Origin: a virus
Lineage: Duplodnaviria; Caudoviricetes
Virus record (IMG/VR): IMGVR_UViG_2700989045_000001
Span: 2,317 to 66,316 of that record
Direction: 5' to 3' (one strand)
DNA: 64,000 nucleotides
In this document: piece by piece, positions 977-61,331 of the stretch
Position numbering within the stretch: the first letter of the stretch is position 1
Layout: every line of letters begins with the position of its first letter
Notes under the pieces: generated by a model
Told to the model about the DNA's origin: nothing
The model's database searches: none
The model's input: only the letters and a program-made list of their open reading frames with translations
Translations under genes and position numbers: made by a program

Positions 977-997
977 AAATCAGACACTGTCGGATTT
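977..997. repeat. 21-bp dispersed palindrome copy 1
   Basis: AAATCAGACACTGTCGGATTT. Confidence 0.95.
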
Positions 998-1022
998 GAA
1001 CAAATCAATTAGGAATGAAGTA

Positions 1023-1253
1023 ATGGAAAATCAACATCGATTCATTAATGGCTACCGTGAGTTAAACGAACATGAGATAGCTGTGATGAACGACATCAAA
1101 CGACTAGGTAATTCCCTCGGGAACTTCCTAGAGAACCTAAAGCACAACCCTGACATCAAAATAGATGAACGGTGGTTATCAATCGGTATGACTCAGATTC
1201 AACAGGGCCTAATGGCTTCTGTACGAGCTGTGGCTCAACCTAGCACATTTTAA
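1023..1253 (+). CDS. acb2: anti-CBASS cyclic-oligonucleotide sponge, Acb2 family
   Basis: MENQHRFINGYRELNEHEI...RWLSIGMTQIQQGLMASVRAVAQPSTF matches the Acb2 pattern (NQH..I.GYR.L..EEI; RWL.I..T.IQ.G.MA..RA.AQP..F); start moved to ATG 1023 after AGGA. Confidence 0.88.
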   Translation: MENQHRFINGYRELNEHEIAVMNDIKRLGNSLGNFLENLKHNPDIKIDERWLSIGMTQIQQGLMASVRAVAQPSTF

Positions 1254-1267
1254 TTACGAGGTGTCCC

Positions 1268-1978
1268 GTGAGTATTACTTATCTAGATGTTGTAAATGCA
1301 GTCCTACGGGACACTAACGAAGTCCCTCTTAACACAACCAACTTTGCTAATGCACGGGGTTTCCATGCGTACCTTAAGGAAGCCGTGAATCGCTCCTTAA
1401 TGGATATGGCTAACTATACAGCCGAATGGCCTTGGTTGGCTAACCTAGTGTACAACCCTGAAGTCAGTGCACACTCTAATGAAATAGAGACAGATAGACG
1501 GGTGGCTATCTACGAGTTCCCTGAGGGAATCTCAGGGGTCGATTGGGATACCTTCGTATTAACCGATATGCGTGGTCGTGAGGCTAGTTCCCTAACTCCT
1601 ATTAGTTATGAAGAATGGGCACACTATGGTCATGCTGATGTATTAAGCAACCGTACAAATGAAGATATCGGTACACCTACTGTTATCTATCGTACCAAAG
1701 ATGGTAAAGGATTTGGCTTAAGTCCAGTACCTGATAAAGCCTATAGAATCCAATTTAACTCATGGGGTGCCCCGGCTCTCCTAGTGAACCCTACGGACCC
1801 TATCCCTTTCCCTGAACGTTACTACACAGTTCTAGTTCATAGAGCTCGTTATTATGCTTGGATGTTCCGTGAGAACGTAGACCAAGCCCGTATAGCTCGT
1901 GATGACTACTCTGATGGAATCAAGCGGATGCAAAGGGATTTAATTAAACCTATCTACACACGGATGAGGGCTGTATAA
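1268..1978 (+). CDS. head-tail adaptor / tail tubular protein A-like
   Basis: YLDVVNAVLR N-terminus, WPW motif, GLSPVPDKAY motif, position before the nozzle gene. Confidence 0.7.
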   Translation: MSITYLDVVNAVLRDTNEVPLNTTNFANARGFHAYLKEAVNRSLMDMANYTAEWPWLANLVYNPEVSAHSNEIETDRRVAIYEFPEGISGVDWDTFVLTDMRGREASSLTPISYEEWAHYGHADVLSNRTNEDIGTPTVIYRTKDGKGFGLSPVPDKAYRIQFNSWGAPALLVNPTDPIPFPERYYTVLVHRARYYAWMFRENVDQARIARDDYSDGIKRMQRDLIKPIYTRMRAV

Positions 1979-3537
1979 TGGCATTACAAACATTCTCTGT
2001 CCCTGCTGTTGGAGGGTTAGATTTAGTTAGTGCACCTCAGGTTCTCTCTCAGAAGCCCGGGGCTGCCTTAGTATTAAACAACTATGAAGCCTTAGCTGAA
2101 GGTGGATATCGAAGAATTAACGGAATGGTTCCCTATGGGGACATCCCGGATGTAATCTCTAAGGAAGTAATACGAGGCATAGCTTACTATAAAGGCATTG
2201 TGGCTGTGATAGGACAATATGTGCTTCACTCACCTGATGGGGCTACATGGAACGTAGTTAATAAAAAGAATGTGAGTAACACCTCATCTAAAGGTTTAAC
2301 AGCTTTAGACCTAATCCCTAGGATGGGCACAGGCCCTGTAGAGTTCACAGTGATTAACCAAGGGGATGTTGATGTAATAACAATCACTGATGATATGGAT
2401 GCTCCTGCTGAGCTTAAGGTAGTGGGTAATAGTTATACCTACACAATATCAGATAATGCTGATGTAGTAGGTTACAGATACAGTACTAAATATCAGGACC
2501 ACGTGGTTTATGCAGGTTCCCGTGGGAAGCCCGGTAGTATCGCTGTGAGTTCCAGATTTAAACCTTTGGACTTCACAAGTGCTGGTGCATGGGTAGCCCA
2601 AGTATCTGATGAGATAGTAGGACTCCACACATTCCGTGATTACCTATATATCTTCTGTAGAAACTCAATATATCGTGTGATTAACTTGGAGTCCCAGAAG
2701 GATGTAGCGATTCGCCCGGTAACCACCAAAGTGGGTTGTATTGATGGCCGCTCTATTCAAGAGATTGGTGGTGATATCTTATTCTTAGCTGATGATGGTC
2801 TGCGATATCTAGGTGCAACAGAACGTATTGATGACGTCTCCTTGAACCTTGTGAGTGCCTTAGTACGCCCATTGATAAACAGTGTAGCCCCTAATCAGGG
2901 CCCTGTTAGTTCAGTAGTTATACCAAGTAAAGCTCAATATCGTCTATTCTTCACTACTACTTTAGGTAAGAGGATAGGTCTCATTGGGACCTTAGGGGCC
3001 GATGGGCAATTCTCATGGTCAACAACTGATGACATGTGGGTAGATGCTTTAACCATGACAACTGAAGGTGAGGGAGAAACAGTCTATCATATAGGTTCAC
3101 CTACCACAGGTAATAAGAGAGTTTATTATCATGATAGAGGTAATCACTTTGACACCTCGGAAATCAAAGGTACATGGGCCGTCCCTCATTTCAACATGGG
3201 TGACTCAGCAGTTCGTAAGACCCTGCATTTCCTTGATGCTTACTTAGAGGCTGAAGATAAAGCGTCTATTGAACTAACTATCAAGTATGACCATGAGGAC
3301 CCTAAGGTGATGCAGCCTGAGGCTTTCTATCTAGAGCCTGTGGTACAAGCAGCTAGATACGGTGAAGCTATCTATGGACAAGCCACTTATGGAGCCATTA
3401 AGTTCCCATTGGATGACATATTCCTAGAGGGCTCAGGTAAATGGATGCAGCTAACATTTCAGGATAATGATGTAGATAATTCTCCTTATATTATTCGAGG
3501 GTATGACCTACAATTCACTCCTTCAGGAAGGATTTAA
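1978..3537 (+). CDS. tail nozzle / tail tubular protein B-like
   Basis: GGLDL N-terminus, beta-rich 519 aa, coupled to the adaptor gene. Confidence 0.7.
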   Translation: MALQTFSVPAVGGLDLVSAPQVLSQKPGAALVLNNYEALAEGGYRRINGMVPYGDIPDVISKEVIRGIAYYKGIVAVIGQYVLHSPDGATWNVVNKKNVSNTSSKGLTALDLIPRMGTGPVEFTVINQGDVDVITITDDMDAPAELKVVGNSYTYTISDNADVVGYRYSTKYQDHVVYAGSRGKPGSIAVSSRFKPLDFTSAGAWVAQVSDEIVGLHTFRDYLYIFCRNSIYRVINLESQKDVAIRPVTTKVGCIDGRSIQEIGGDILFLADDGLRYLGATERIDDVSLNLVSALVRPLINSVAPNQGPVSSVVIPSKAQYRLFFTTTLGKRIGLIGTLGADGQFSWSTTDDMWVDALTMTTEGEGETVYHIGSPTTGNKRVYYHDRGNHFDTSEIKGTWAVPHFNMGDSAVRKTLHFLDAYLEAEDKASIELTIKYDHEDPKVMQPEAFYLEPVVQAARYGEAIYGQATYGAIKFPLDDIFLEGSGKWMQLTFQDNDVDNSPYIIRGYDLQFTPSGRI

Positions 3538-3539
3538 TA

Positions 3540-6715: not shown

Positions 6716-7759
6716 ATGGATATTAATGTTGGTGGGACTTGGAAAGCAACCAACCCACACGTTAATGTTGGTGGTACATGGAAGCCCGTCAGTATTGGAT
6801 GGGTAAACGTTGGGGGCACTTGGAGGAAGTATTTTACCTCTGAGTTCACCTATACGGTCCCTGCGAATATCGCTAACTTTAACTTATATAATACAATAGG
6901 GATTCCAGAGGCTGATGTTATTAACGTCATAGTCCCTGCTGGTGTCACTATCTATGCTACTTCAACCAGTACACCTGCCTTTAATATTGGTAATGCTTAT
7001 AATGGTAAGACAATAAACATTATCAACAAAGGTGGTATTTATGGTATGGGAGGAGGAGCCTCGGCTGGCGTAGGGGTCGCAGGTGGTACAGCTTTATACC
7101 TACGAACCCAGAACAAAGTAACCATCTTCAATGATGGTGTGATTGGTGGTGGCGGCGGTGGCGCCGGTAAAGGTGGTACAGGTGGTCCGGGCTATTACAC
7201 AACGCAATCGACTATAAGAGAACCATCAAGTGGTTCCTTTGACCCTAATGGTAGCATACAAGCTGGGTACTTTGGCGGCGGCGCAGACTTACTTATCAAT
7301 GGTAATAGGGTTGCACGTATCGAGGAACAATTTTCACGTGTACTTGCTAATGGTATGGTGTTTAATTATGGTGGATACATTTACTACACCTCTCAATATA
7401 CTGGTGCAGGTATAGGTGAATTAAAATGTAACTACATCTACCGAACCCGTGTTGTTACTAACACTATAAACACCAATGGTGGCGCAGGTGGTAACGGAGG
7501 TCGAGGCCAAGGTTACAACTCAGTTAACCAAGGAGGTGCCGGAGGTGCCGCAGGTGGTGCTAACGCTGGACGTGGGGGTACTGGTGGTACTGGTGGTACT
7601 TGGGGTCAACCGGGAGCTACTGGTAACACAGGCGCAGGTGGTAATCGAGGTGCTGGTTATGGTGGTTCCGCAGGTGGCCGTGCAGGTTACGCTATTGATG
7701 GTAACTCACTAACCATCGTGAAAACCGTAGGTTCCATCTTGGGTGGCCGTGTCAATTAA
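6716..7759 (+). CDS. receptor-binding adhesin, gp38-like glycine-rich
   Basis: Three NVGGTW[KR] repeats at the N-terminus and polyglycine motifs, directly after the fibre gene. Confidence 0.75.
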   Translation: MDINVGGTWKATNPHVNVGGTWKPVSIGWVNVGGTWRKYFTSEFTYTVPANIANFNLYNTIGIPEADVINVIVPAGVTIYATSTSTPAFNIGNAYNGKTINIINKGGIYGMGGGASAGVGVAGGTALYLRTQNKVTIFNDGVIGGGGGGAGKGGTGGPGYYTTQSTIREPSSGSFDPNGSIQAGYFGGGADLLINGNRVARIEEQFSRVLANGMVFNYGGYIYYTSQYTGAGIGELKCNYIYRTRVVTNTINTNGGAGGNGGRGQGYNSVNQGGAGGAAGGANAGRGGTGGTGGTWGQPGATGNTGAGGNRGAGYGGSAGGRAGYAIDGNSLTIVKTVGSILGGRVN

Positions 7760-7762
7760 TAC

Positions 7763-7783
7763 AAATCCGACAGTGTCTGATTT
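7763..7783. repeat. 21-bp dispersed palindrome copy 2
   Basis: AAATCCGACAGTGTCTGATTT. Confidence 0.95.
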
Positions 7784-12230: not shown

Positions 12231-13744
12231 TGTCATTTGGTGAAGCATTAGCTACCGGACTTGCCCAAGGATTGGGTGAAGGAGTCCAAGATTACTACAA
12301 GGACCAACGTAGAGAAAAGATGGAAGTGCGTCAGCTCGACCGTTCATTTGATATGTTCAAGAAACAATCACAATACAGCTTTGCCTTGGAAGGTATTGGG
12401 AAACAAAATGAAGCCTTGGGAGCATGGGAAGATGCCGCTAAGCTAGACACGAAAACCCTAGCGTTCCAAGCAGCTACTAAAATGTCTGCTCAGTTCTCCA
12501 AGGAAGACCGCCCTAAGTTCCTCCGGGATTCCATGAAGAATCTCAACGGGATGTCCAAGGCTGAGCTATTGAGTCGTGCAGGTTATAATAAACCTGACTA
12601 CTCACAATGGATTGATAACCCTGAATACCAAGATGCTATTCCTATGTCACGTGTGGCAGGTATGGGTGAACTCCCTGATGCTTCCTCTGTGTTTAAATAT
12701 GACCCTCGTCAATTTGAAGAACAACATAAAGTAGAGGGTGAGAAAGTCACAGACTACATGCGTAAGAAAGATGATGAGTTTTCAGCAATTAGCTCTATGT
12801 CTGTTATTAACTTTGGTGCTAAGACTAGTACAGAGCTCAATAACTTGATTTGGAAAAACCGACCTAGCGGTGTTGGTGTGGTAATGAAAGGTGCTGATGC
12901 TATTAGCTATGATAAGAACCTATTAGATACCTTGATTAACACAGGTCAAGTAGTACAAGTAGGTCCTGAGTTGAAACTGGTAGGTGAGCTATCAGATGTT
13001 GAACGTGCCACCTTTGCACCACAGGCTCCTGCGGCTCCTCAAAGTACCTCAGGTTCCCCGGGTGCCCTTTATACTGAACCTAAAACTGAAGAGTATTTAA
13101 CTAATCAGGAAGAGAAGGAAGCTCTTAAAGTTCAACGTACAGAATCTAAGGCTGTTGAGAAGAATCAAGGTAAGACAATTAAATCTTATACTTCTCTTGA
13201 TGACTTACAGTCTCAACTTGAATCACTAAGCCCTGAAGCTCAGAAAATCCTATTTGGTGATACTTCCCTAAAAGGTATGTTGGCCATGACTGATGTAGGT
13301 AAACAACTTGCTGCTAAGGCTGATGTAGCGGGAGCCCAAGAGGCCCGTAAGTTCCTAGCATTAATGGAAAACATCAGTGCTACGTTGAAGCATGAGCAAT
13401 ATGGTTCAGCCCAAACAGCTACAGAGTTGAAGAACTTTGCAGACCAATTAGGTAACCCTAGCATCCTTCAGAACCCTAAGACCCTATTGGACCAAATTAG
13501 AACCCGTAAGCAACTCGTAGGTTCTTCCTTGAGTGCCGCAGTGGGAACCACAGGACGTGAGGCTTATCTGAAAGAACACCCTGACATGGCTGCTATGTTA
13601 AATGAAGTCTGGAGCTCAGGCGATTCAAATCAGACAGTGTCGGATTCTGCCGCTCCACTTCCAACCAAAGCTGATTTAATGGCATCAGGTAAATATACTG
13701 AAGCACAAGTTGATGCTTACTTAGCAGCAATGAGTAAACAATAA
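12230..13744 (+). CDS. internal virion protein
   Basis: MSFG..LATGLAQG N-terminus, helical, position. Confidence 0.6.
   Translation: MSFGEALATGLAQGLGEGVQDYYKDQRREKMEVRQLDRSFDMFKKQSQYSFALEGIGKQNEALGAWEDAAKLDTKTLAFQAATKMSAQFSKEDRPKFLRDSMKNLNGMSKAELLSRAGYNKPDYSQWIDNPEYQDAIPMSRVAGMGELPDASSVFKYDPRQFEEQHKVEGEKVTDYMRKKDDEFSAISSMSVINFGAKTSTELNNLIWKNRPSGVGVVMKGADAISYDKNLLDTLINTGQVVQVGPELKLVGELSDVERATFAPQAPAAPQSTSGSPGALYTEPKTEEYLTNQEEKEALKVQRTESKAVEKNQGKTIKSYTSLDDLQSQLESLSPEAQKILFGDTSLKGMLAMTDVGKQLAAKADVAGAQEARKFLALMENISATLKHEQYGSAQTATELKNFADQLGNPSILQNPKTLLDQIRTRKQLVGSSLSAAVGTTGREAYLKEHPDMAAMLNEVWSSGDSNQTVSDSAAPLPTKADLMASGKYTEAQVDAYLAAMSKQ
13627..13647. repeat. 21-bp dispersed palindrome copy 3 (inside CDS)
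   Basis: AAATCAGACAGTGTCGGATTC, translated as SNQTVSDS. Confidence 0.9.
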
Positions 13745-17203: not shown

Positions 17204-17627
17204 ATCTTAATGCCTGTGCTGCTCGTTCTAGGGCTGCGGCCTTCTCTTCCGCACTAGAGTAATTGATTAAGTGCCCCATCAATTGACTAATATCATTAGT
17301 ATCAAAGGCATCTGTGCGGAACAATGAGCCACCATCTTGAGCCGGGTAAGCCTCGATGTGTACCATAAGTCCCGTAGGATGTGTACGGTTCCAATTGTCA
17401 ATCACTCGTAATGCTTGTTCTAAACTTCCCAAATCAGACACTGTCGGATTTGTAGGGTTCCCAATGGAATCCATGCGGAAGCTAGATTGAAGGTAGGTTC
17501 CCTCATGGCCCTCTAGGGTAAACTCTTTGTCATTGAGAACTTCATTTACAATGGCACGTGTTCCTTTACGGAACGTCCCTTCTATCGGTGCAGTTAGGCG
17601 CACCACTATATCACCTTTACGGTACAT
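17193..17627 (-). CDS. hypothetical protein (SH3-like N-terminus)
   Basis: RBS GGAG; contains a palindrome copy in frame. Confidence 0.6.
   Translation of the reverse strand: MYRKGDIVVRLTAPIEGTFRKGTRAIVNEVLNDKEFTLEGHEGTYLQSSFRMDSIGNPTNPTVSDLGSLEQALRVIDNWNRTHPTGLMVHIEAYPAQDGGSLFRTDAFDTNDISQLMGHLINYSSAEEKAAALERAAQALRFGA
17431..17451. repeat. 21-bp dispersed palindrome copy 4 (inside CDS)
   Basis: AAATCAGACACTGTCGGATTT, read as NPTVSDL on the minus strand. Confidence 0.95.
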
Positions 17628-21609: not shown

Positions 21610-21817
21610 GTTTATTAATACGCTGTAGAACCATAGAGCGGTATCGCATATTGTGTTCTATGTTCCAGTTCCAATTATCAAGGGCTTCTTTATATCCCGG
21701 GAAGATTGCCACATGCTTAGGACAATGGTCCCATGTGGTTACCACTTGGTACTCTTGGGTTCCACGAAGTTTATCGATGAACAGCACAAGGCGCTCACCT
21801 AATTTCAAATCCGACAC
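21572..21817 (-). CDS. hypothetical protein
   Basis: ORF whose GTG start lies inside a palindrome copy, with GGAG 10 nt upstream. Confidence 0.5.
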   Translation of the reverse strand: MSDLKLGERLVLFIDKLRGTQEYQVVTTWDHCPKHVAIFPGYKEALDNWNWNIEHNMRYRSMVLQRINKHGAQVPLLSIKW

Positions 21818-21827
21818 TGTCTGATTT
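21807..21827. repeat. 21-bp dispersed palindrome copy 5
   Basis: AAATCCGACACTGTCTGATTT. Confidence 0.95.
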
Positions 21828-26231: not shown

Positions 26232-26880
26232 GAATCACCTCTACATCTTCAGGCCAGAACACATAATAGTAATCATCATCAAAGCAGTCTTCTTGGCATC
26301 CCAGACGATTCAATTCATCACCCTTTATGGAATATAAGTTTCCTTCTTGGGTAAGGGAAGCTTCTACTTTGTTCCCAAGGGCTTCTTTAGGAATCCCGAT
26401 ATACTTAGGGGAGTTACCTATCAGTTTAACTTGCATGTTGTTCTCCAAATCAGACACTGTCGGATTTCTCCAATTTCTTATCCATTTACACCCAGTACTA
26501 AAGGAGACACCGAAGCGTCTCCCCAGTTCTGCCCCTGAGCACCCTGTAGACTCCCAGAACTCCTTAGCAGGAATTCGTTTGTCATCAGCCCTCTCTATAT
26601 TAGTCTTAGCTTTATGTTTAGCTATAGACAATAGTTGTAAATGCTCAGGATTTATACAGTGGCGATTGCGACACTTATGGTCTACCTCAAAACCCTCAGG
26701 GATGGGGCCATAAGTATCTTCATACACCTTACGATGCCACATTACAGCCTTGCCTTCCTTTGTCATTTTACGGAAGTACCCATCCTGATTAAGTTTATGT
26801 GATACAACTAAATAACAACCTAGGCTATTAGTATTTATAATAATAGGTTTACTATTAGACATCAATGCGTCTCTGCCCAT
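26221..26880 (-). CDS. HNH endonuclease read through a palindrome into a small downstream ORF
   Basis: HR.VYE...GPIP.G..VDHKCRNR.C.NPEHL HNH motif plus HTH; internal RBS GGAG and MQVKL start right after the palindrome. Confidence 0.8.
   Translation of the reverse strand: MGRDALMSNSKPIIINTNSLGCYLVVSHKLNQDGYFRKMTKEGKAVMWHRKVYEDTYGPIPEGFEVDHKCRNRHCINPEHLQLLSIAKHKAKTNIERADDKRIPAKEFWESTGCSGAELGRRFGVSFSTGCKWIRNWRNPTVSDLENNMQVKLIGNSPKYIGIPKEALGNKVEASLTQEGNLYSIKGDELNRLGCQEDCFDDDYYYVFWPEDVEVIHES
26447..26467. repeat. 21-bp dispersed palindrome copy 6
   Basis: AAATCAGACACTGTCGGATTT. Confidence 0.95.
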
Positions 26881-29148: not shown

Positions 29149-29169
29149 AAATCCGACAGTGTCCGATTT
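29149..29169. repeat. 21-bp dispersed palindrome copy 7
   Basis: AAATCCGACAGTGTCCGATTT. Confidence 0.95.
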
Positions 29170-31413: not shown

Positions 31414-31434
31414 AAATCGGACACTGTCGGATTT
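31414..31434. repeat. 21-bp dispersed palindrome copy 8
   Basis: AAATCGGACACTGTCGGATTT with extended GGAC/GTCC arms. Confidence 0.95.
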
Positions 31435-38172: not shown

Positions 38173-38193
38173 AAATCAGACACTGTCGGATTT
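38173..38193. repeat. 21-bp dispersed palindrome copy 10
   Basis: AAATCAGACACTGTCGGATTT. Confidence 0.95.
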
Positions 38194-40043: not shown

Positions 40044-40064
40044 AAATCAGACAGTGTCGGATTT
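40044..40064. repeat. 21-bp dispersed palindrome copy 11
   Basis: AAATCAGACAGTGTCGGATTT. Confidence 0.95.
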
Positions 40065-41929: not shown

Positions 41930-41950
41930 AAATCAGACAGTGTCGGATTT
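41930..41950. repeat. 21-bp dispersed palindrome copy 12
   Basis: AAATCAGACAGTGTCGGATTT. Confidence 0.95.
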
Positions 41951-43342: not shown

Positions 43343-43363
43343 AAATCAGACACTGTCGGATTT
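43343..43363. repeat. 21-bp dispersed palindrome copy 13
   Basis: AAATCAGACACTGTCGGATTT, between two promoters. Confidence 0.95.
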
Positions 43364-44391: not shown

Positions 44392-44412
44392 AAATCGGAC
44401 ACTGTCTGATTT
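44392..44412. repeat. 21-bp dispersed palindrome copy 14
   Basis: AAATCGGACACTGTCTGATTT. Confidence 0.95.
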
Positions 44413-46767: not shown

Positions 46768-46788
46768 AAATCAGACACTGTCGGATTT
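46768..46788. repeat. 21-bp dispersed palindrome copy 15
   Basis: AAATCAGACACTGTCGGATTT, 3 nt past the RNAP N-half stop. Confidence 0.95.
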
Positions 46789-48529: not shown

Positions 48530-48550
48530 AAATCCGACACTGTCTGATTT
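48530..48550. repeat. 21-bp dispersed palindrome copy 16
   Basis: AAATCCGACACTGTCTGATTT abutting the RNAP RBS. Confidence 0.95.
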
Positions 48551-48952: not shown

Positions 48953-48973
48953 ATATCCGACAGTGTCCGATTT
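48953..48973. repeat. 21-bp dispersed palindrome copy 17 (variant)
   Basis: ATATCCGACAGTGTCCGATTT. Confidence 0.88.
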
Positions 48974-49584: not shown

Positions 49585-49605
49585 AAATCGGACAGTGTCG
49601 GATTT
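49585..49605. repeat. 21-bp dispersed palindrome copy 18
   Basis: AAATCGGACAGTGTCGGATTT, 3 nt past the stop of the ParB-like gene. Confidence 0.95.
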
Positions 49606-49608: not shown

Positions 49609-50757
49609 TTATTTAAACATTGTATTTGCTGCTGCTAGGGCATCTTTAAGAATCTCTAAGGCTTCATTCTCGCCAAACTTATCAGAATGAACACGTTTCA
49701 ACTGTTTGTTGTATGCGCGTTTAATGGCTGCTTTAGGATTCTTAAGCCCTTGCAATGCGGCTAGGTCCAGCTCTAACACATCCCACCAATCACGCCCACG
49801 CCATGAGCTTGCTATGGCTCCCATAGGGTTCTCGTTCGATTCCTCATCAGTATCAAACGGGGCGCTGTCATCTTCTTGAGGTTCCTCATTAGGTTGCGCA
49901 TCTTCCTGTTGTGGTTCCCCTTGGTAGCCACAAGAATCCATGAGTAAGCGTAACAGCTTATTCTTAAGGTCCGTATTAGTAAGAGCTAACACTTGAGCAA
50001 ATGTAAGGTCTAACGGGTTGTTTTCACCTGCATTAGTTGATTGCTCTTGATTAGTGCCTTGCTCGCCTTGGCCTTCGTTAGCTCCCTGCTTAGCCTTGAT
50101 ATCTTGCCATTCAGCGAACCATTCTTTGATAGTCTTTTCAGACTTGAATGCGAACTCTGCTACTTCCTGAAGCGTTGCACCTTGCTCAAACATAGCAAAG
50201 GCTTCAGCTTTAGTTTTCTTATCAATGGCCGCTGTAGCCCGTTCCACTGTTTTAGCTGAACATCCAAGAAGTGCTGCTATTTCTTGTTTGCGGCCATGAG
50301 CTCGCCAGTAACCACCATCCAGTAAATAGAGTTGTTTAATTGCGTTCTGGTAATCGTTGCCCTTGAAGTTAACACCATTGCGGCGGTTGGCTGTCATTGA
50401 GTAGTAGATAGCATCTTTCAATGTACCTTTGACAATGTCAGCGTGAAACGTGCCTAATTTCGCAATGAGAGCGGCGCTAGTGCGTTGGAAGCCATCAACC
50501 AATACTCGGGCACCCGCTTCAATCACGGAGCCGTCAGGCATTGATACAGGCTCTGTGAGCTCTACTAGCTCAATGGCTGGAAAGTTATTTGCCTGCCCTG
50601 CTAGCATGGCCTCCGCATAGTTCTCAATGGCTTGCTTATCGACACTTGCACGTTGCTGTGTACCTGCATCAATAACGATTGTTGATAGATTGACTTGCTC
50701 ACGGATTGCACCGACGAACATTGATTGGATATCTTCTACGTTAATTAGTTGTGACAT
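49609..50757 (-). CDS. ParB/Srx-like N-domain + two HTH + acidic linker + DnaJ-like C-domain protein
   Basis: Q.R...D...I.NYAE.M, LVDGFQR..A, AN..NG (ParB/StrR-like); QEIAALLGCSAKTV and LQEVAEFAFKSEKTI HTHs; WWDVL.L...IKRAY......HSDK J-like domain. Confidence 0.8.
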   Translation of the reverse strand: MSQLINVEDIQSMFVGAIREQVNLSTIVIDAGTQQRASVDKQAIENYAEAMLAGQANNFPAIELVELTEPVSMPDGSVIEAGARVLVDGFQRTSAALIAKLGTFHADIVKGTLKDAIYYSMTANRRNGVNFKGNDYQNAIKQLYLLDGGYWRAHGRKQEIAALLGCSAKTVERATAAIDKKTKAEAFAMFEQGATLQEVAEFAFKSEKTIKEWFAEWQDIKAKQGANEGQGEQGTNQEQSTNAGENNPLDLTFAQVLALTNTDLKNKLLRLLMDSCGYQGEPQQEDAQPNEEPQEDDSAPFDTDEESNENPMGAIASSWRGRDWWDVLELDLAALQGLKNPKAAIKRAYNKQLKRVHSDKFGENEALEILKDALAAANTMFK

Positions 50758-51242: not shown

Positions 51243-52216
51243 AGTTGTTACTCTTAGTTGGTTGTCTTATTAAATACCCTAGTTATAAGGCACTTAATGA
51301 GATGCAGTATTCCAGTTTATTACACTGTCGTCGCCCTGCATTGGCTAACTCATTTTACCCGTGGCTCTTAACCTATACACTATGGGATGGCATTCTTACC
51401 ATTTAGTGATACCGACAAGGCCCGTTGGTCTGTTCCGTGTCGATGGATGTATAATAGGGTATCCCAAGATATAAAACTTTGATGTAGGTCAAACTTTTAA
51501 TCATTGTGTATAAATAGTTTGTTGATATTAATTCTCATCTAAATCAGACACCTGTCGTATATGTAGTGATGTTCCTTAGTAATGAACGCACACACGCGAT
51601 AGCACACCTAACAACATACATCAAGATATTTCGTGTTAATAGAATGTAAAACATGTTGCAATATATAGTGAAATCGACGAGGTTGAACGATAGCGATAGT
51701 GCCAATGCATTGGTATGGATAAGGCTTAAAACTCGTTAGGGAGCGTTTGAGGAGCATTTGGAGCACCTGTGTTTATGTACACTATCAACCGAACCTTAGT
51801 TACTCATTATTGTTAATCCTTATTAATATCCTGTTAACAAGTCTAATAGAATCCTAACAAATCCTATAGTATCCCTGTGTGCTTCTTAAATGTTACAAGT
51901 GTGTTACTAGTGTGTTACCCATAGTGGATTAATGTGTGTGTAAATAATGGGTTACGGTGTGTAAAGGTGAGTTTACAGGGAGGGAGCTTTAGGGAGCTTT
52001 AGGATACATAGGGGAACCCGAGGGAGCTATTGCCCTCTCATCACATGAGCTGTTAGACCTATATTAATAATAGGTAAAGCCCTCTATCGAGGACCTATAA
52101 CACCATGCCCAAGGATTCCCCAAGGTTTCCAATAGGTTACCGCAGGATTCCCCAAGGTTTCCAATGAGTTACCCATGATTACCCCAAGATTACCGTGTGA
52201 TTTACAGTGTAAATTC

Positions 52217-52237
52217 AAATCAGACACTGTCGGATTT
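52217..52237. repeat. 21-bp dispersed palindrome copy 19
   Basis: AAATCAGACACTGTCGGATTT. Confidence 0.95.
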
Positions 52238-53617: not shown

Positions 53618-53622
53618 GTTTT

Positions 53623-54318: not shown

Positions 54319-54324
54319 AATTAC

Positions 54325-54401: not shown

Positions 54402-54424
54402 AATCCACCTCATTGGAGGTTACT

Positions 54425-54799: not shown

Positions 54800-54805
54800 T
54801 TGCCC

Positions 54806-54826
54806 AAATCCGACACTGTCTGATTT
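54806..54826. repeat. 21-bp dispersed palindrome copy 20
   Basis: AAATCCGACACTGTCTGATTT just upstream of the terL RBS. Confidence 0.95.
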
Positions 54827-54844
54827 GAACGAAAGGAGTGTCTT

Positions 54845-56851
54845 ATGGCAAACTTTGAGAAAGACTTGGCTCAATATGAGACCATTCTAGGGACTATCTC
54901 AGGGGAAACCTTGAGACACTGGATGAAAATCGTCCCGAACTTTGATGAGAAGTACACAAAACTGACAGAAGAACCTATTAGATACCGAGGACGCTATGTG
55001 CCTCTTGGTTATACAGGTAAAAAAGGCGCTGCAAGCCCTGTTAAAGCCCATATATTGGCTATTATCATTGCTTTTGCTAAGTGCAAATTCGAGAAACGCT
55101 ACTCACTTGGTGAGTGTGCTCAACTCTTATCCCAAGTGGGCCTTAACGTGACCAAAGCTGGTCTCTCAAAGGTATTCCCACGCTATTCAGAGGCCCTAGG
55201 GCTCACTGAACACATCCCCGATTCGGATGCCAAAGTCGTTGAGATTAAATCATTAGCTGATGCTGAGAAGTTAGTCCAACGTGAACGCAAAAACTACGCT
55301 AAACAAGCCTTGAAAGAAGGTAAGTCTGGTGAAGAAGTTCGAGAAGAAATGATTGAACTGCGTAAGAAAGGCACATCCCGAAAACCCACCCCAGAACGTG
55401 TAATAGAACAGAAAACAGAAGAGGAATTGGAAGAATTCCGAGACAGAGAAATAGTTTATGAACCTACCACGAAGCAAATGGATTTCCATGCGGCTTCAGA
55501 AAAGGTTGTCCTCTACGGAGGTGCAGCAGGTGGTGGTAAATCGTATGCTTTAGTATTTGATGCTGTTCGTTACGCTCACGTCCCCGGCTATCGTGCCGTG
55601 ATTATCCGTAAGACCACAAAGGCCCTACGTGAAATCATTCTGACGACTAAACAATTCTATCCTAAACTATTCCCCGGTGCAAAATTCAACAAACAAGAAG
55701 GTACTTGGACGTTCCCTAGTGGAGCCATTGTAGAACTCTCTTATTGTGAACGTATTGATGACGTTGAGCAATATCAGGGACAACAATACCAATATATTGC
55801 CTTCGACGAGTTAGGTCAATGGCCTGATGAAGAATGTTGGATGTACCTATTCTCACGTCTCCGCAACCCTCCGACCGACCCTAGAACGGGGGAGAAAATC
55901 CCCACGTATATGAGAGCCACATCAAACCCGGGTGCATCTTGGGTAAAAGAAATGTTCATTGATGCTGCTCCTGCAAATACTACGTTCTACAACGAGGCAG
56001 GGCTTTCTATGAAGTTCATCCCTGCGACCCTACTAGACAACCCACACTTAGATAAAGAATACCGCCAGATGCTTATGGCATTGCCTGAGGTTAAGAAACG
56101 TCAGTTACTTTATGGTGACTGGAACGCTACTGATACCGCAGCATTCCCTGAGTTTCGTCCTGAGGGCACTATGAGTTTCAATTTAGACACCGGGGAAGAA
56201 CAGGTAATCTGTGACCCTCATGTTATTGAACCTTTTGAAATCCCTTTATGGTGGAACCGAGTTGGTGGGTTAGACTATGGTTATACTGACCCTGCAACTG
56301 CTGTATGGTATGCTATCAATCCTGACACTGGTCAGAAGATAGTATATGAAGAATACAACAAAGCAGGAAGAACAGGTAAAGAATTTGCTCAGGATGTCCT
56401 AGAGTGCGAAAAGGGCCAAGTGCTTCCTATTGACCACCCTCTGGACTGGTCCGTGTTCAACAAATCTGGCCATACAGGTCCTACTGTAGGTGAAGAAATG
56501 CGTAGAACAGGATTAATAGTCCGTAAGGCTGATAAGAACCGTGTTGGCGGTAAAGTTCAGATTCATGAACACTTACGCCCAATGAAAGGCACTACAAAGC
56601 CCGGCTTAGTAATATTCAATACTTGTCCTCGTCTTATTGCTCAGTTACGTGCAGCTCAAATCAAGGAAAATGAACCAGATGACATCGACCAAACCCGGGT
56701 GGGTTCTGGCTCCGCACGTCACCACTGGGACTTATATGATTCCTTACGATATGGCTTAATGGCACGTCCAACTCTAATCAATAGGGCTGACCAGATGCAC
56801 CAAGTCAAACGACAATCACAATGGAATAGAGTGCAACGCTATTTCAGCTAA
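54845..56851 (+). CDS. terL: terminase large subunit with N-terminal extension
   Basis: YGGAAGGGKS Walker A, FDEL Walker B, TSNPG motif III, GLDYGY.DP nuclease, D.YDSLRY. Confidence 0.95.
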   Translation: MANFEKDLAQYETILGTISGETLRHWMKIVPNFDEKYTKLTEEPIRYRGRYVPLGYTGKKGAASPVKAHILAIIIAFAKCKFEKRYSLGECAQLLSQVGLNVTKAGLSKVFPRYSEALGLTEHIPDSDAKVVEIKSLADAEKLVQRERKNYAKQALKEGKSGEEVREEMIELRKKGTSRKPTPERVIEQKTEEELEEFRDREIVYEPTTKQMDFHAASEKVVLYGGAAGGGKSYALVFDAVRYAHVPGYRAVIIRKTTKALREIILTTKQFYPKLFPGAKFNKQEGTWTFPSGAIVELSYCERIDDVEQYQGQQYQYIAFDELGQWPDEECWMYLFSRLRNPPTDPRTGEKIPTYMRATSNPGASWVKEMFIDAAPANTTFYNEAGLSMKFIPATLLDNPHLDKEYRQMLMALPEVKKRQLLYGDWNATDTAAFPEFRPEGTMSFNLDTGEEQVICDPHVIEPFEIPLWWNRVGGLDYGYTDPATAVWYAINPDTGQKIVYEEYNKAGRTGKEFAQDVLECEKGQVLPIDHPLDWSVFNKSGHTGPTVGEEMRRTGLIVRKADKNRVGGKVQIHEHLRPMKGTTKPGLVIFNTCPRLIAQLRAAQIKENEPDDIDQTRVGSGSARHHWDLYDSLRYGLMARPTLINRADQMHQVKRQSQWNRVQRYFS

Positions 56852-56893
56852 CGGGGAGCCTTAGGGTTCCTCTGAAATCTCTTTGGAGGAACA

Positions 56894-59005
56894 ATGGCTC
56901 TAACAGATATGGAAAGGGGACCTGCATTAGTAGATGACCAAAATGGCGCTACTCTTGCTGATGGGACTCCTAAGCCAAAGCTATCTACGCTCATCATGGA
57001 CATCCGTGGTAAGCAGTGTGCAGCCTCTAACTCACGCAGTGCTAAAGAAGCACAATGGCGTAAGAACCTTATGCAGTTCCGTGGTCAAGATATCGGTACG
57101 TTCCGTAAATCAGAACACACTGATGTTTCAATTCGAACCACAACTGTTAAAGTTAAAGCTGCTCTAGCTCAGATTATAGAAGCTATCTTATCTAATGGTA
57201 AGTTCCCTCTCACTATTAAGGAAACCGTACTCCCTGAAGGAGCCTATGAGTTTGCCCATATTAGTGAAGGCGGGACCCAACCAGCACAACCACAGGCTCA
57301 ACAAGCCGCACCTAAGCCTTATGTAAGCTCTATTGGCTTCGAAGGTGATGGTATGGATATTCAGCCCGGTGCTCGATTCGATATGCTTAAAGGCATGTTT
57401 AAAGACGTCCCTGAAGAAGTTATGTCCCAAGCAAACATAGCTGAAGGTGCAAACCTTCAAGGTGGTGTCACCGTGGCTCCTGCGAAGGAAGCTGCTAAGA
57501 ACATGGAAAAGGCTATCATGGACCAACTGGAAGCAAGTCGTGCTAACGCTCACTTGAATGCCTCAGTATTTGAAGCATGTATTCTAGGTACAGGTGCATT
57601 GAAAGGGCCTTTTAACGAATACAAAACCATCCCTTATTGGAAGAAAAATGAGGATGGAACACGAACATATCAACCAAAGCAAATTCTCACTCCGAAAGTA
57701 TCATTCACGAGTATTTGGGACCTTTACATTGACCCTAGCTGCTCCACGGACATCCGTGATGCAGAATGGGTAGTAGAGCGTCACAAAATGAATATGGTTG
57801 AAGTTCGACAATTAAAAGACCGTCCACTATTTAAGAAAGATGCAGTTAATGCATTGGTTAATGCAGGACCAAATTACCAACAGTTTACTAACACGGATTC
57901 GGAACGTGAGGACAAGGACCTTAATACTTCGGTGTCACGTGCTTCTACTCTGTGGGAAGTTTGGGAGTATTGGGGATACATGTCTACTGATAAGTTGACT
58001 GAGTATGGCCTAACGATTCCTGAGGATGCAGGGGATTACGTGCAAGTCAACGTCTGGTATAGTGGCGATTATGTACTTCGTGTTTCTCTCAATCCTTTTC
58101 AGCCTAACCGTATTCCTTACTATGTTTTTCCTTATGAGCGCGACCCATATTCTATCTATGGCACTGGCGTTCCTGAGTCAATGGCTGACCAACAGAAACT
58201 AATGAATGGTTTCTTACGAATGGCAGTCGATAACTTGGCTCTAGCTGGTAACTTAGTATTCGACGTGGATGAAACTTCACTAGCTCCGGGACAGTCGATG
58301 GAAATCGAACCGGGTGCTATATTTAGACGTGTGGCAGGTGCCCCGGGGCAAGCCGTATATGGCATTAAGTTCCCTAGCACAGCCAATGAGAACCTACAGA
58401 TGTTCAACGCTGTACGCCAACATGCCGATGAGGCCACTGGGATTCCTAGTGTAGCTCATGGACAGACAGGTGTAAGTGGCACTGGACGTACCGCTGCTGG
58501 TATGTCAATGATTCTCAACAACGCTTCGCTTAACATCAAAACTGCTGTACGCAATATTGATGAAAACCTCATCGTGCCTTTAGGTCAAGCTTTATTTGCT
58601 TGGAATATGCAATTCAACGGTGAGAAACACCCAGAAATCGAAGGTGATTTAGAGATTGTAGCAACAGGTGCAAGTAACTTAGAAATGAAGGATGTAGAAG
58701 CTCAACGCTTGCAAACATTCTTACAGCTATCTGCTAACCCTGCTCTTGCTCCATTAATCAGACTCCCTAACATCGTTAAGCGTTTAGCTCAAGTGATGGA
58801 TATGGACCCTGAGGAAATCCTAAACTCCCCAGAAGAAGCTCAGTTCTATGCTCAGTTGATGGGTGCTCAAGGAATGCAGCAAACTGCATCACCCGGCAAT
58901 GTACCTAGCCCTATGATGGGCCAACAAGGCAATACAGAAGGTGCAGGAAACCCTAACGGTGCCAATGGTAGCGTAGAAGGCGTGAATGCCCCTATGGGAA
59001 TTTAA
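56894..59005 (+). CDS. portal protein
   Basis: 703 aa after terL; GTG.LKGP, S.WDLY.DP, YG.GVP, RTA.GMS motifs. Confidence 0.88.
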   Translation: MALTDMERGPALVDDQNGATLADGTPKPKLSTLIMDIRGKQCAASNSRSAKEAQWRKNLMQFRGQDIGTFRKSEHTDVSIRTTTVKVKAALAQIIEAILSNGKFPLTIKETVLPEGAYEFAHISEGGTQPAQPQAQQAAPKPYVSSIGFEGDGMDIQPGARFDMLKGMFKDVPEEVMSQANIAEGANLQGGVTVAPAKEAAKNMEKAIMDQLEASRANAHLNASVFEACILGTGALKGPFNEYKTIPYWKKNEDGTRTYQPKQILTPKVSFTSIWDLYIDPSCSTDIRDAEWVVERHKMNMVEVRQLKDRPLFKKDAVNALVNAGPNYQQFTNTDSEREDKDLNTSVSRASTLWEVWEYWGYMSTDKLTEYGLTIPEDAGDYVQVNVWYSGDYVLRVSLNPFQPNRIPYYVFPYERDPYSIYGTGVPESMADQQKLMNGFLRMAVDNLALAGNLVFDVDETSLAPGQSMEIEPGAIFRRVAGAPGQAVYGIKFPSTANENLQMFNAVRQHADEATGIPSVAHGQTGVSGTGRTAAGMSMILNNASLNIKTAVRNIDENLIVPLGQALFAWNMQFNGEKHPEIEGDLEIVATGASNLEMKDVEAQRLQTFLQLSANPALAPLIRLPNIVKRLAQVMDMDPEEILNSPEEAQFYAQLMGAQGMQQTASPGNVPSPMMGQQGNTEGAGNPNGANGSVEGVNAPMGI

Positions 59006-59242: not shown

Positions 59243-59263
59243 AAATCCGACACTGTCTGATTT
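59243..59263. repeat. 21-bp dispersed palindrome copy 21
   Basis: AAATCCGACACTGTCTGATTT. Confidence 0.95.
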
Positions 59264-60069: not shown

Positions 60070-60095
60070 TAATATTTTACAAGGAGTAAAATCTA

Positions 60096-61268
60096 ATGGC
60101 ATTAACATCTGACAACAGTCAATTTGCACGTGGCAAAGGTACTGGCCTTAACTTCGCAGGTACTAACTTCGCTGCTGACAGCTCAATTGACGGTCCGGAC
60201 ATTAAAGGTAATGGTGTAGACGGTAAGAACTCGTCTTGGATTGCAACCATCTATAGTAAGAAAGTACTTAAGTACTTCCGTACTGCCTCTGTAGTTGAAG
60301 CAATCACAAACAACGACTACTACGGTGAAATTAGCAACTACGGTGATAGCGTTATTATCATCAAAGAACCTAAAATGAACATCGTGGATTACGGTCGTGG
60401 TCAGAAACTAACTTCACAAGCTATCGACTCAGATAGCATGACTTTGGTGCTTGACCAAGCTAAAGCTTTCCAATTCCAAGTTGATGACATTGAAGAAAAA
60501 TTGTCTCACGTGAACTGGCAATCTCTAGCAACTGATGCTGCATCGTATGATTTGAAAAATAACTACGATAAATCTATCCTTAACTGGATGGCTGAACAAG
60601 TTGTCCCTGCAAACATCATCACCACTGAAGCTGGTGAAGCTGTAGCTGTGGCTGCGTCTGGTTCTGTAGATGCACTTAAGAAAATCGCTGCTGCTAAAGC
60701 TAACGTTCTTCAACTTGTATCTAAAGAAGCTGATGCTGACTTCGTTACCAAAATGACCCCTCTTGACTTGCTAAACCGTTTCAACTTGAAACTGGATATC
60801 GCCGAGGTCCCTGAGGAAGGCCGTTGGGTAGTCGTTGACCCTGCGTTCTTGGAACTTGCAATGCGTATGGATAGTAACCTAATGAACCGTGATTACAATG
60901 ACGGTGCTGCTACTATTCGTAACGGTCTCGTATCTGTAAGCCCTATCCGTGGCTTGAAAATGTACAAAACCAACAACGCACCTAAATTGGTAGCGGTAGC
61001 TTACAACCCTGTTAACCAAACAGGTACACCGGGTGTGTCAGTAAGCCGTCCTAACACTGACGCTAAATTGAACGATGAAGGTCGTATCATTCTTGCAGGT
61101 CATATGTCTGCTGTAGCTACTGCTAACGCTATCGTGAAAACTGAAAGCTTCCGCTCTCATGAATCATTTGGTGACGTTGTTCGTGGTATGCACGTATATG
61201 GTCGTGGTGTTGTTCGTCCAGAGTCCCTAGTGGCTGCTACTGTGACTTACCGCGCTCCTAAAGCGTAA
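60096..61268 (+). CDS. major capsid protein
   Basis: IYSKKVL.YFR, ITN.DY.GEI...GD.V.IIKEP, F.D.VRG.HVYG..V.RPE motifs. Confidence 0.92.
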   Translation: MALTSDNSQFARGKGTGLNFAGTNFAADSSIDGPDIKGNGVDGKNSSWIATIYSKKVLKYFRTASVVEAITNNDYYGEISNYGDSVIIIKEPKMNIVDYGRGQKLTSQAIDSDSMTLVLDQAKAFQFQVDDIEEKLSHVNWQSLATDAASYDLKNNYDKSILNWMAEQVVPANIITTEAGEAVAVAASGSVDALKKIAAAKANVLQLVSKEADADFVTKMTPLDLLNRFNLKLDIAEVPEEGRWVVVDPAFLELAMRMDSNLMNRDYNDGAATIRNGLVSVSPIRGLKMYKTNNAPKLVAVAYNPVNQTGTPGVSVSRPNTDAKLNDEGRIILAGHMSAVATANAIVKTESFRSHESFGDVVRGMHVYGRGVVRPESLVAATVTYRAPKA

Positions 61269-61275
61269 TAACTAT

Positions 61276-61307
61276 GGAGGGTTAGGGTTTCCCTTTCCCT
61301 CCTATTT
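61276..61307 (+). terminator. terminator after the major capsid gene
   Basis: GGAGGG..AGGG/CCCT..CCCTCC hairpin plus TATTT. Confidence 0.6.
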
Positions 61308-61310
61308 CCC

Positions 61311-61331
61311 AAATCGGACACTGTCGGATTT
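61311..61331. repeat. 21-bp dispersed palindrome copy 22
   Basis: AAATCGGACACTGTCGGATTT. Confidence 0.95.

Follow-up and report, generated by a model that had tools for sequence, protein, structure and literature searches.

A dispersed array of 21-bp palindromes in a lytic phage: candidate DNA docking sites for an early ParB-like protein

What reads a 21-bp palindrome that recurs along the entire genome of a lytic phage, and does it act at the level of DNA or of RNA? The window analysed here is a 64,000-nucleotide stretch of DNA, positions 2317-66316 of the 66,316-bp record IMGVR_UViG_2700989045_000001. The palindrome AAATCVGACASTGTCBGATTT was found in 20 exact copies in the window and was absent from 100 dinucleotide shuffles. 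When up to three mismatches were allowed, 22 matches were obtained, the two additional ones carrying one mismatch each (C as the last base at 13627 and T as the second base at 48953). A scan of the whole record yielded 22 forward and 22 reverse matches, with none for the reversed control, and the other 2,316 bases of the record contained no further copies. The array is confirmed in the window: all 22 starts listed in the initial annotation were recovered, and the consensus that had been given for all of them is exact in 20 and off by the single bases named above in the remaining two. The degenerate copy claimed at 51541 is also present, reading AAATCAGACA-CC-TGTCGTATA, its centre being 2 nt long and its right arm decayed. 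Gaps between copies range from 423 to 6,786 bp, in line with the earlier upper limit of about 7 kb. The features are as follows, the palindromes being entered without strand.

977..997: exact palindrome, 25 nt upstream of an ATG, with ORF 73-933 on its other side
7763..7783: exact palindrome, 3 nt on from the stop of ORF 6716-7759
13627..13647: intragenic palindrome with 1 mismatch, in ORF 12230-13744, encoding ..NQTVSD..
17431..17451: exact intragenic palindrome, in ORF 17193-17627, whose residues 68-125 match MQM1_024
21807..21827: exact palindrome, 7 nt past the stop of ORF 21835-22047
26447..26467: exact palindrome, through which the HNH endonuclease ORF 26221-26880 (HNH_3 match) reads, giving the peptide RNPTVSDL
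29149..29169: exact palindrome, syntenic, between primase-helicase and DNA polymerase
31414..31434: exact palindrome, 11 nt past the RNA ligase stop codon
34061..34081: exact palindrome, from the exact-match scan
38173..38193: exact palindrome, 2 nt past the stop of ORF 38196-38645
40044..40064: exact palindrome, from the exact-match scan
41930..41950: exact palindrome, from the exact-match scan
43343..43363: exact palindrome, flanked by minus-strand promoter-like sites 43311-43324 and 43380-43393
44392..44412: exact palindrome, with a promoter-like site about 21 nt upstream
46768..46788: exact palindrome, syntenic, at the split RNA polymerase junction, 3 nt past the stop of the N-half
48530..48550: exact palindrome, 13 nt upstream of an RNA polymerase N-half ATG
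48953..48973: palindrome with 1 mismatch, from the mismatch-tolerant scan
49585..49605: exact palindrome, 3 nt past the stop of the ParB-like gene
49609..50757, minus strand: early gene for the candidate binder (382 aa), with predicted ParB/Srx-like N-domain, two HTHs, acidic linker and J-like C-terminal domain
51541..51561: degenerate copy heading the early region, with a centre of 2 nt (GACACCTGTC)
52217..52237: exact palindrome, in a repeat-rich divergent non-coding region
54806..54826: exact palindrome, syntenic, preceding the large terminase gene
59243..59263: exact palindrome, syntenic with relatives
61311..61331: exact palindrome, syntenic, after the major capsid gene homologue

The placement of the copies is far from random. 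Only 6 of the 22 lie fully inside ORFs of at least 60 aa, although such ORFs cover 86.1% of the window (P = 6e-10); an alternative start lies just downstream of three of these six, and checked translations place three copies inside genes. As the initial annotation held, the site is distinct from the phage promoter, for which the promoter-like word is GGTACACCTTATAG (10 exact 14-mers; 13 matches with up to two mismatches). Spacing is more even than random in all three complete genomes compared, with coefficients of variation of 0.57, 0.49 and 0.56 (P = 0.0034, 0.00075 and 0.0022) and one site per 3,014, 3,334 and 2,925 bp, and two metagenomic contigs hold 12 sites in 34,926 bp and 5 sites in 13,313 bp. 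A density of about one site per 3 kb is maintained in all five family members examined.

The four relatives compared, the Aeromonas phages MQM1 and 1233 and the metagenomic contigs L011 and L012, were all found through the ParB-like protein, so that some of the co-occurrence of gene and site follows from the way they were chosen. Every family member examined (5/5) has its own version of the site, AAATC-N-GACA-S in the window, AAA-W-CGGACA-CC/GG in MQM1 and 1233, and GTCAA-W-A-W-C-M-GACA-S in L011 and L012, and one version is common to all copies inside each genome, which suggests co-evolution with a trans-acting factor. In MQM1, both flanking orthologues were found for 13 of the 22 window sites, and 9 of these 13 gaps hold a site, five of the nine being 212 bp or shorter. 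For example, the gaps orthologous to 29149 measure 130 bp in MQM1 and 132 bp in 1233, and those orthologous to 54806 measure 76 bp in both phages, with a site in each case. At least five positions are syntenic among the relatives. L011 (at 6377) and L012 (at 6345) also contain copies with a 2-nt centre similar to that of the degenerate copy, in the region matching window position 51541.

We consider it probable that the palindromes are an array of double-stranded DNA sites for a protein. This is favoured over a role in RNA because the two arms do not compensate for each other, no compensatory changes having been seen in any genome compared, and because the predicted RNA hairpin is weak, with a minimum free energy of -3.5 kcal/mol in 18 of the 22 window copies and a structure of 5 + 3 base pairs, a 1x1 mismatch and a 3-nt loop. 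On these grounds the earlier proposal of a dyad for a dimeric protein appears sound. Across phages with about 50% protein identity, it is the stem sequence that is conserved and not the pairing, and in L011 and L012 two to three of the 10 arm positions differ in every copy. The two half-sites are unlike in 22/22 window copies, 16/19 MQM1 copies and 23/23 1233 copies; in the window, identity would have been expected in 39.6% (P = 1.5e-5). The double-stranded DNA reading does not by itself account for this avoidance of like half-sites, which might, as a guess, reflect selection against hairpin or cruciform formation, since the phage encodes a RusA-like resolvase. Position 6 of the half-site is A in 17, C in 21, G in 6 and T in none of the 44 window half-sites. 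Within the site at 49585, the variable position 49590 is C rather than G in relatives from runs X1 and X2.

In an RNA-level alternative, which seems unlikely to us, this weak hairpin with its obligatory 1x1 mismatch would mark cistron boundaries in the transcripts of the T7-type RNA polymerase that the phage possesses, and a host or phage RNA-binding protein would read it, whether for transcript processing, for stabilising the 3' end, for pausing or termination, or for translational control as an operator. T7 itself has intergenic RNase III sites. Consistent with such a role, 10 of the 22 window sites begin 2-11 nt past a stop codon, the placement expected of cistron-end RNA elements, a start codon with a Shine-Dalgarno sequence follows most window sites within 10-65 nt, and every copy has its mismatch at the same position of the stem, which could serve recognition. 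Furthermore, the centre reads CC on the coding strand at 15 of 18 sites in MQM1 and 19 of 22 in 1233. This strand bias is not predicted by a symmetric dimer and points to a transcription- or strand-linked aspect, and because of it an RNA-level role keeps some weight. However, orientation relative to transcription is random in the window (11/22), the three intragenic copies lie where cleavage or termination would do harm, and the copy at 52217 sits between divergent promoters, upstream of the late promoter-like sites 52577, 52831 and 52909, in a region that is probably untranscribed. The copies do not show the U-tract and G+C-rich stem of an intrinsic terminator, and the predicted fold lacks the double-stranded stem of about two helical turns that is typical of RNase III sites. 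Of six terminator-like sites in the scanned stretch 48500-53000, none is a palindrome copy or coincides with those at 48530, 48953, 49585 and 52217, in line with the missing U-tail noted initially.

A single-stranded or cruciform element, in which an imperfect hairpin would serve replication priming or recombination, or a selfish REP-like repeat, is still less probable. The copies do resemble REP elements in being imperfect palindromes with a conserved mismatch, at gene ends and in both orientations, and one of them marks the place where the RNA polymerase gene is split. GTGTC is the recognition word of the T7 primase, and it occurs on exactly one strand of every site. By our reasoning, however, the strand carrying GTGTC fits no single consistent lagging-strand model in MQM1; the hairpins are weak, syntenic positions and concerted changes of version are unlike repeated insertion, and no HUH/Y1 transposase-like match was found among the 40 ORFs scanned.

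If the palindromes are double-stranded DNA sites, the product of the gene at 49609-50757 is the leading, though still tentative, candidate for their binder. The gene is placed among the early genes, of which it is the second, as the initial annotation had it early, because the first minus-strand phage promoter-like site (48849) lies downstream of it. The label "ParB-like" is also upheld by predicted fold: an AF2 model of the protein (pLDDT 79) matches 7bm8 (Caulobacter ParB, E = 1.5e-5), 6t1f, 7nfu (Noc), 8qa9 (KorB) and 6sdk with E values of 1.5e-5 to 4.5e-5, the ParB, Noc and KorB alignments extending over 204-275 columns that span the N-domain and the HTH domain, and it matches sulfiredoxins with TM scores of 0.65-0.79 over about 104 residues. 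The protein also matches phrog_1033 (5e-7), and HTH_23 was detected in 22 of 22 members of the protein family, the window protein having two HTHs. The first HTH helix, GCSxKTVxRA, is invariant, and so is the GACA core of the site. The second reads FKSEKTIKEW in the window and HKALNTIKTW in L011, where sites have 1-nt centres, and VISxQTAANW in MQM1 and 1233, where centres are of 2 nt. The second HTH thus appears to vary in step with the site version, in a comparison of three lineages only. In one contig of run X2, 49587 seems to be followed directly by 51413, which would leave out the gene, a weak case in which the shorter side has 39 letters and the likeness is 80%.

The sites could instead be double-stranded DNA sites for another phage or host protein, with the ParB-like protein acting elsewhere. 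All of the DNA-level evidence fits this equally well, the motifs of the ParB-like protein depart from canonical ParB, and its link to the sites consists of the built-in co-occurrence and the three-lineage co-variation. Among the 40 early and middle ORFs scanned, at least 25 gave no Pfam match at E <= 0.01, and many small early proteins without a detectable domain could be alternative binders. Nevertheless, we regard a different binder as improbable. The ParB-like protein is the sole clear sequence-specific HTH protein among these 40 ORFs, the only other HTH match being a weak one in an HNH endonuclease, and it is early, is conserved across the five site-bearing genomes and has a variable HTH that tracks the site version. 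A host factor is unlikely in particular, since phages of Vibrio-type hosts and those of Aeromonas differ in version in a concerted way while positions stay constant, and even L011 and the window differ.

The kind of system to which the ParB-like protein belongs is a separate matter. Pfam ParB_N (PF02195) was not detected in it at E <= 0.001, is absent from the 25 Pfam families listed for the 22 family members, and gave no match at E <= 1 in a six-frame genome search whose control matched in 11 of 14 genomes. The motif GERRxR is replaced by D-G-F-[H/Q]-R, which is invariant in the family and retains one of the two arginines. No ParB dimerisation domain was recognisable, and the C-terminus instead gave weak DnaJ matches in 16 of 22 members (best E = 1.6e-4) and weak matches to J-domains in the PDB (E = 0.3-0.6). 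Searches of the 66,316-bp record for a ParA-type ATPase (PF13614, PF01656) gave no match at E <= 1, with controls matching in 14 of 14 genomes; neither an integrase nor a partition ATPase was seen in the phage, and MQM1 lacks an integrase according to its published description. A parS/ParB partition system, as originally proposed, is not supported, given the lack of ParB_N, GERRxR and ParA together with the J-like C-terminus.

Taken together, the palindromes are best read as double-stranded DNA docking sites for a dimeric phage protein, most likely the product of 49609-50757, and we assign this joint reading a probability of roughly 0.45. Each half-site would consist of (C)AAATC-N-GACA, the halves joining at a single central C/G. 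The ParB-like protein would be made by host RNA polymerase in the first minutes of infection, and its dimers would occupy sites about 3 kb apart over the whole chromosome, acting genome-wide as KorB does from OB or Noc from NBS. By analogy with these proteins, it may stay where it binds, or move or spread along the DNA as a clamp gated by nucleotide; any clamping or use of CTP by the phage protein would be an extrapolation from them. Speculatively, the protein could in this way control transcription, or access to the phage DNA, globally, and host DnaK might conceivably be recruited through the J-like domain. The coating, shielding, compaction or pulling in of DNA proposed in the initial annotation is likewise speculative.

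Among known systems, T7 RNase III sites and REP elements resemble the phage sites in being repeated structured elements at gene boundaries of compact genomes with long RNAs, but they are defined by structure and are much more stable, whereas the phage sites conserve stem sequence and fold at about -3.5 kcal/mol. ParB-parS systems share with the phage a ParB/Srx-like N-domain, an HTH and a palindromic site; in contrast, the phage is lytic, has neither ParA nor a ParB_N match, and its sites are not clustered near an origin. Noc of Bacillus is an orphan ParB-family protein without ParA that binds tens of dispersed chromosomal palindromes (NBS); its N-terminal amphipathic helix tethers the DNA to the membrane, and it belongs to the canonical CTPases, with a Pfam ParB_N domain. 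Noc (7nfu, 7ol9) is a top fold match of the modelled phage protein, and ParA is absent in both, although the membrane-tether helix and the ParB_N-type CTPase domain were not found in the phage protein.

The IncP-1 plasmid RK2 carries 12 OB sites. Like the phage genome, it is a replicon of about 60 kb in which a single odd-length palindrome with a central G/C recurs at many dispersed places. The phage sites differ from OB in being 21 bp long, never symmetric and about twice as dense, and they are carried by a lytic phage whose polymerase is of T7 type. KorB, whose structure (8qa9) ranks with the best fold matches of the phage model, is partnered by a ParA (IncC), dimerises through a C-terminal domain and is proven to act as a CTP-dependent clamp, whereas the phage protein lacks a ParA partner, is J-like at its C-terminus and bears the DGF[HQ]R motif. 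According to one KorB study (PMC11790492), the OB core is TTTAGCGGCTAAA, the P-motif of KorB is GARRYR, which itself departs from GERRxR, and KorB combines a ParB fold with an HTH, as is predicted for the phage protein, and acts on gene expression at a distance. Because ParB_N, GERRxR and ParA are all absent from the phage, its likeness is to KorB and Noc and not to partition, and KorB-OB and Noc-NBS are closer analogues than parS/ParB. As far as we could find, dispersed arrays of docking sites have been described for plasmids and not for phages of this kind.

The palindrome array noted in the initial annotation was confirmed and could be extended to relatives of this phage. The window contains 20 exact matches to AAATCVGACASTGTCBGATTT, compared with 0 in 100 dinucleotide shuffles, and two more copies (13627 and 48953, with one mismatch each) were found when mismatches were allowed, giving a total of 22. 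In a degenerate copy at 51541, the centre is two bases long (GACACCTGTC) and the right arm has decayed. The other 2,316 bases of the 66,316-bp record, which is rated complete, contained no further copy, and a reversed-pattern control gave 0 matches. Each copy is composed of two half-sites, (C)AAATC-N-GACA, joined at a single C or G; N is A in 17, C in 21 and G in 6 of the 44 half-sites, and T does not occur there. Within a copy, the half-sites always differ (identical in 0/22, against 39.6% expected, P = 1.5e-5). The palindrome is different from the word that resembles a phage promoter (GGTACACCTTATAG).

ORFs of at least 60 aa on the block strand cover 86.1% of the window, and 13 copies are located outside such ORFs, 3 lie across an ORF end and 6 are inside (P = 6e-10). 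Three of the latter (977, 40044 and 46768) fall within doubtful N-terminal extensions, and the other three (13627, 17431 and 26447) are truly read through, each encoding ..TVSD.. in the same frame. Ten copies start 2-11 nt past a stop codon. Furthermore, the copies are spaced more evenly than expected at random (CV 0.57, P = 0.0034). An HNH_3 endonuclease ORF (26221-26880) with a weak HTH_23 match runs straight through a palindrome copy, and it may represent two genes, because an ATG with GGAG is found 10 nt past that copy. In addition, an ORF-poor stretch of 1.35 kb (41954-43311) has palindromes at its borders (41930 and 43343), and promoter-like sites feed into it.

The genome encodes a T7-type RNA polymerase in two ORFs, a family A DNA polymerase, a primase-helicase, an Rnl2 RNA ligase and a DNA ligase, together with a SAM lyase, a RusA-like resolvase, a thymidine kinase, a dNMP kinase and an HNH endonuclease. 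Minus-strand genes occupy the segment from ~51.5 kb to 16.2 kb, and all other genes run on the plus strand. Sites resembling promoters for the phage polymerase begin at 48849 (minus strand) and 52577 (plus strand), and therefore the SAM lyase, ParB-like and polymerase genes would need the host polymerase. The ParB-like gene, being within this segment, is therefore placed among the early genes.

49609-50757, minus strand: ParB-like gene, early, product of 382 aa
50835-51242: SAM lyase gene, in the segment needing host polymerase

Between the early and late blocks, the ORF-poor stretch 51860-52520 is rich in repeats (GTGTGTTAC, GAGGGAGCTTTAG, CCCCAAGGTTTCCAAT, three copies of GGTTCCTAAAT and three of CCCACAGGCTTC) and resembles the genome end or concatemer junction of a T7-type phage. 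The three tandem late promoter-like sites (52577, 52831 and 52909, in the region 52553-52922) are each preceded by the same word, ATATTTGTAACATAAAAATAT.

By tblastn, the named relatives are the Aeromonas phages vB_AsaP_MQM1 and 1233, with ~50% protein identity, and both retain the ParB-like gene. They carry a 22-bp version of the site, AAA-W-CGGACA-CC/GG-TGTCCG-W-TTT, in 19 copies (MQM1) and 23 copies (1233). A search with the 22-member protein family led to contigs L011 and L012, both from metagenomes (identical to records L015 and L014), which encode a ParB-like homologue with 37-38% identity and likewise have a split polymerase. Their sites read GTCAA-W-A-W-C-M-GACA-S-TGTC..., with 12 in 34,926 bp (L011) and 5 in 13,313 bp (L012), and 0 in controls. 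The density of sites was ~1 per 2.7-3.3 kb in all five members, and over-even spacing was also observed in MQM1 (CV 0.49, P = 0.00075) and 1233 (CV 0.56, P = 0.0022). Both flanking orthologues were found in MQM1 for 13 of the 22 window sites, and a site is present in 9 of these 13 orthologous gaps. Five site-bearing gaps are only 76-212 bp long, namely the one between primase and polymerase, the one at the junction of the RNA polymerase, the one preceding the large terminase gene and a pair around the capsid gene; the orthologous MQM1 gaps for 7763, 13627 and 17431 contain no site. Within each genome, one version of the site is common to all copies. Sites that are old and fixed in place, yet of one version per genome, indicate concerted change, such as is produced by the selection exerted by a trans-acting reader.

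At the junction of the split RNA polymerase, the window copy (46768-46788) begins 3 nt past the stop codon of the N-half, and the orthologous copies (MQM1 record 56392-56413, 1233 25310-25331) lie within the 3' end of the N-half ORF. The genomes with a 1-nt centre each contain one odd copy with a 2-nt centre (window 51541-51561, L011 6371-6392, L012 6339-6360), which lies at the head of the early genes, in the divergent region, and may be a special operator.

Other searches for relatives gave little. No match in the phage collection was obtained by megablast with 8 kb of window sequence, and IMG/VR scans with the single ParB-like protein, the RNA polymerase N-half or a 3-sequence alignment found nothing. 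An exact-pattern scan of IMG/VR found 0 contigs with the site version of the window and one with the Aeromonas-phage version, a single copy in 18 kb that was taken as chance. In the contigs of two DNA sequencing runs compared with 38000-57999, relatives of ~85-95% identity were present, with 12 sites covered; a G to C change at 49590, at the variable position of a palindrome, is among the 40 differences listed of 1,950. In a contig from one run (X2, depth ~401), 49587 seems to be connected to 51413 by 40 other letters, bypassing the ParB-like and SAM lyase genes, which another contig of similar depth covers. The join is weakly supported, since its shorter side is 39 letters of 80% likeness; if true, it would be a natural variant without the ParB-like gene.

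It is likely, with a probability of roughly 0.65, that the array consists of double-stranded sites read by a protein dimer, because the sequence of the stem is conserved and its pairing is not. The arms are mismatched at variable positions in 22/22 window copies, 16/19 in MQM1 and 23/23 in 1233, while in every copy of L011 and L012 2-3 of the 10 arm positions are mismatched, and no compensatory pairs between arms were seen. A role at the level of RNA, or one linked to a particular strand, is less likely but has two observations in its favour. Sites are found at stop codons, and the coding strand carries CC at the asymmetric centre in 15/18 MQM1 copies (P = 0.0075) and 19/22 1233 copies (P = 0.0009), two tests that are not independent, since MQM1 and 1233 share sites, and that use a strand inferred by homology for the unannotated part of 1233. 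However, a hairpin is difficult to reconcile with arms that are almost never complementary, with an RNA minimum free energy of only -3.5 kcal/mol in 18/22 window copies (mean -3.7), with three copies within genes, and with the copy at 52217, which lies in the repeat-rich stretch separating the divergent early and late promoters. In the window, the coding-strand centre is C in 11/22 copies, so that orientation relative to transcription is random. The consistent difference between half-sites and the bias for one strand seen in MQM1 and 1233 leave some probability for a role that is specific to a strand or exerted through RNA. As a separate matter, in three MQM1 copies (25691, 45184 and 54037) the arms pair completely (AAAACGGACA..TGTCCGTTTT, -10.6 kcal/mol) and a T-run comes next, and these copies could double as bidirectional terminators.

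Several other identities of the palindrome were considered and rejected. Intrinsic terminators were rejected because none of the terminator-like sites scanned in 48500-53000 coincides with a palindrome copy and the folding energy is weak, and N4-type hairpin promoters because the centre base follows no strand rule in the window (11/22). No resemblance to the T7 class II pause signal was seen. Agreement with host MatP/matS is limited to the inner 9 bp, and the 2-nt centre of the relatives breaks the match; for LexA or CRP boxes, the spacing is wrong. For primase sites, GTGTC is present on one strand of every site, but the choice of strand matches no single fork model. An operator beside phage promoters was also rejected, as a palindrome centre is found within 50 bp of just 3 of the 13 promoter-like matches.

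For the protein that would read the double-stranded sites, the ParB-like protein is the leading but unproven candidate, on the basis of its sequence and predicted structure. In Pfam it matches HTH_23 alone, and in PHROGs it has a weak ParB-like match (phrog_1033, 5e-7). An AF2 model from the 22-member alignment (pLDDT 79) gave as best PDB matches Caulobacter ParB (7bm8, 6t1f), Noc (7nfu, 7ol9), KorB (8qa9), other ParBs and sulfiredoxin, with E-values of 1.5e-5 to 1e-3, TM by target of ~0.5 over 200-275 columns and a large rmsd, which a match over several domains would be expected to give. Its Atlas look-alikes agree with a ParB fold, with scores below 0.9 that make them leads only. The family has DGF[HQ]R in place of GERRxR, and Pfam searches of the genome for ParB_N and ParA gave no match. 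The C-terminus (~70 residues) is J-like, with weak DnaJ matches in 16/22 members (best E = 1.6e-4); the subgroup of the window has the motif HSD there, and the canonical J-domain motif HPD occurs in MQM1, 1233 and certain other subgroups. Both the first HTH helix and the GACA core of the site are invariant, and the second HTH helix sorts with the site version, in three lineages only. Among 40 early and middle ORFs scanned, the one other HTH was a weak match in the HNH endonuclease. Because all four relatives were found via the ParB-like protein, the joint presence of gene and site is in part a product of the search. At 36 more distant ParB_N-type loci (L016-L051), the palindrome of the window is absent. 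Three unrelated viral records with distant ParB_N-type homologues (G002, G003 and G004; loci L043, L045 and L031) each have 6-8 dispersed copies of another palindrome, GGCAACGTTGCC, often reading GTGGCAACGTTGCCAC (controls 0), and in L043 two of the copies are directly downstream of the ParB-like match.

If the pairing of protein and site is true, genome-wide control in the style of KorB and OB by a ParB-fold protein would also occur in a virulent phage that needs no partition. The fusion to a J-like domain hints that a site-specific DNA binder is connected with host Hsp70. In the widest reading, which we regard as improbable, a nucleotide-gated KorB/Noc-like protein of a family of strictly lytic phages with T7-type polymerases would load along the whole chromosome (~1 site/3 kb) minutes after entry, and its J domain would draw host Hsp70 (DnaK) onto the DNA. 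The resulting chaperone-coupled coat would strip off or block silencers, nucleases or polymerase of the host, and the unlike half-sites would avert hairpin extrusion and cutting by the phage's own resolvase. The pairing is easily testable, since two of the relatives (MQM1 and 1233) exist as cultured phages, a defined 21-22-mer serves as the site and natural specificity swaps are available from the three lineages.

In the texts searched, we found no description of such arrays in phages, although supplements may hold annotations; 'palindrom', 'promoter', 'terminator' and 'hairpin' occur 0 times in the text of the MQM1 paper, and no mention of the array is made in the CHOED genome note. A survey of the ParB-CTPase fold reports many phage fusions, and in its available text 'DnaJ' and 'J-domain' have 0 occurrences each and site arrays are not mentioned (PMC12704722). 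As described there, the survey began from PF02195, which the ParB-like protein does not match, and would therefore have missed it. The pairing, if true, would provide a function for one of the many orphan ParB-fold proteins in phages covered by that text (PMC12704722).

By analogy, the nearest known system is KorB with the dispersed OB palindromes of plasmid RK2. According to the available text of PMC11790492, KorB has a ParB fold and is a CTP-gated clamp that slides from OB sites and silences distant promoters; the OB core is TTTAGCGGCTAAA and the P-motif of KorB is GARRYR. The phage system is distinct in several respects: it is without ParA, has a non-canonical nucleotide motif and a J-like tail, and uses a longer, obligatorily asymmetric site, and the replicon that carries it belongs to a virulent phage whose polymerase is of the T7 type. 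Among orphan ParBs, Noc and its NBS sites form the second analogue. The parS/ParB-type interpretation of the initial annotation is partly supported, and what stands of it is a likely set of genome-wide double-stranded docking sites with an early ParB/KorB-like candidate, and not a partition system, as neither ParA nor ParB_N is matched. Judged by analogy, the logic of the array is of the KorB or Noc type rather than that of parS/ParB partition.
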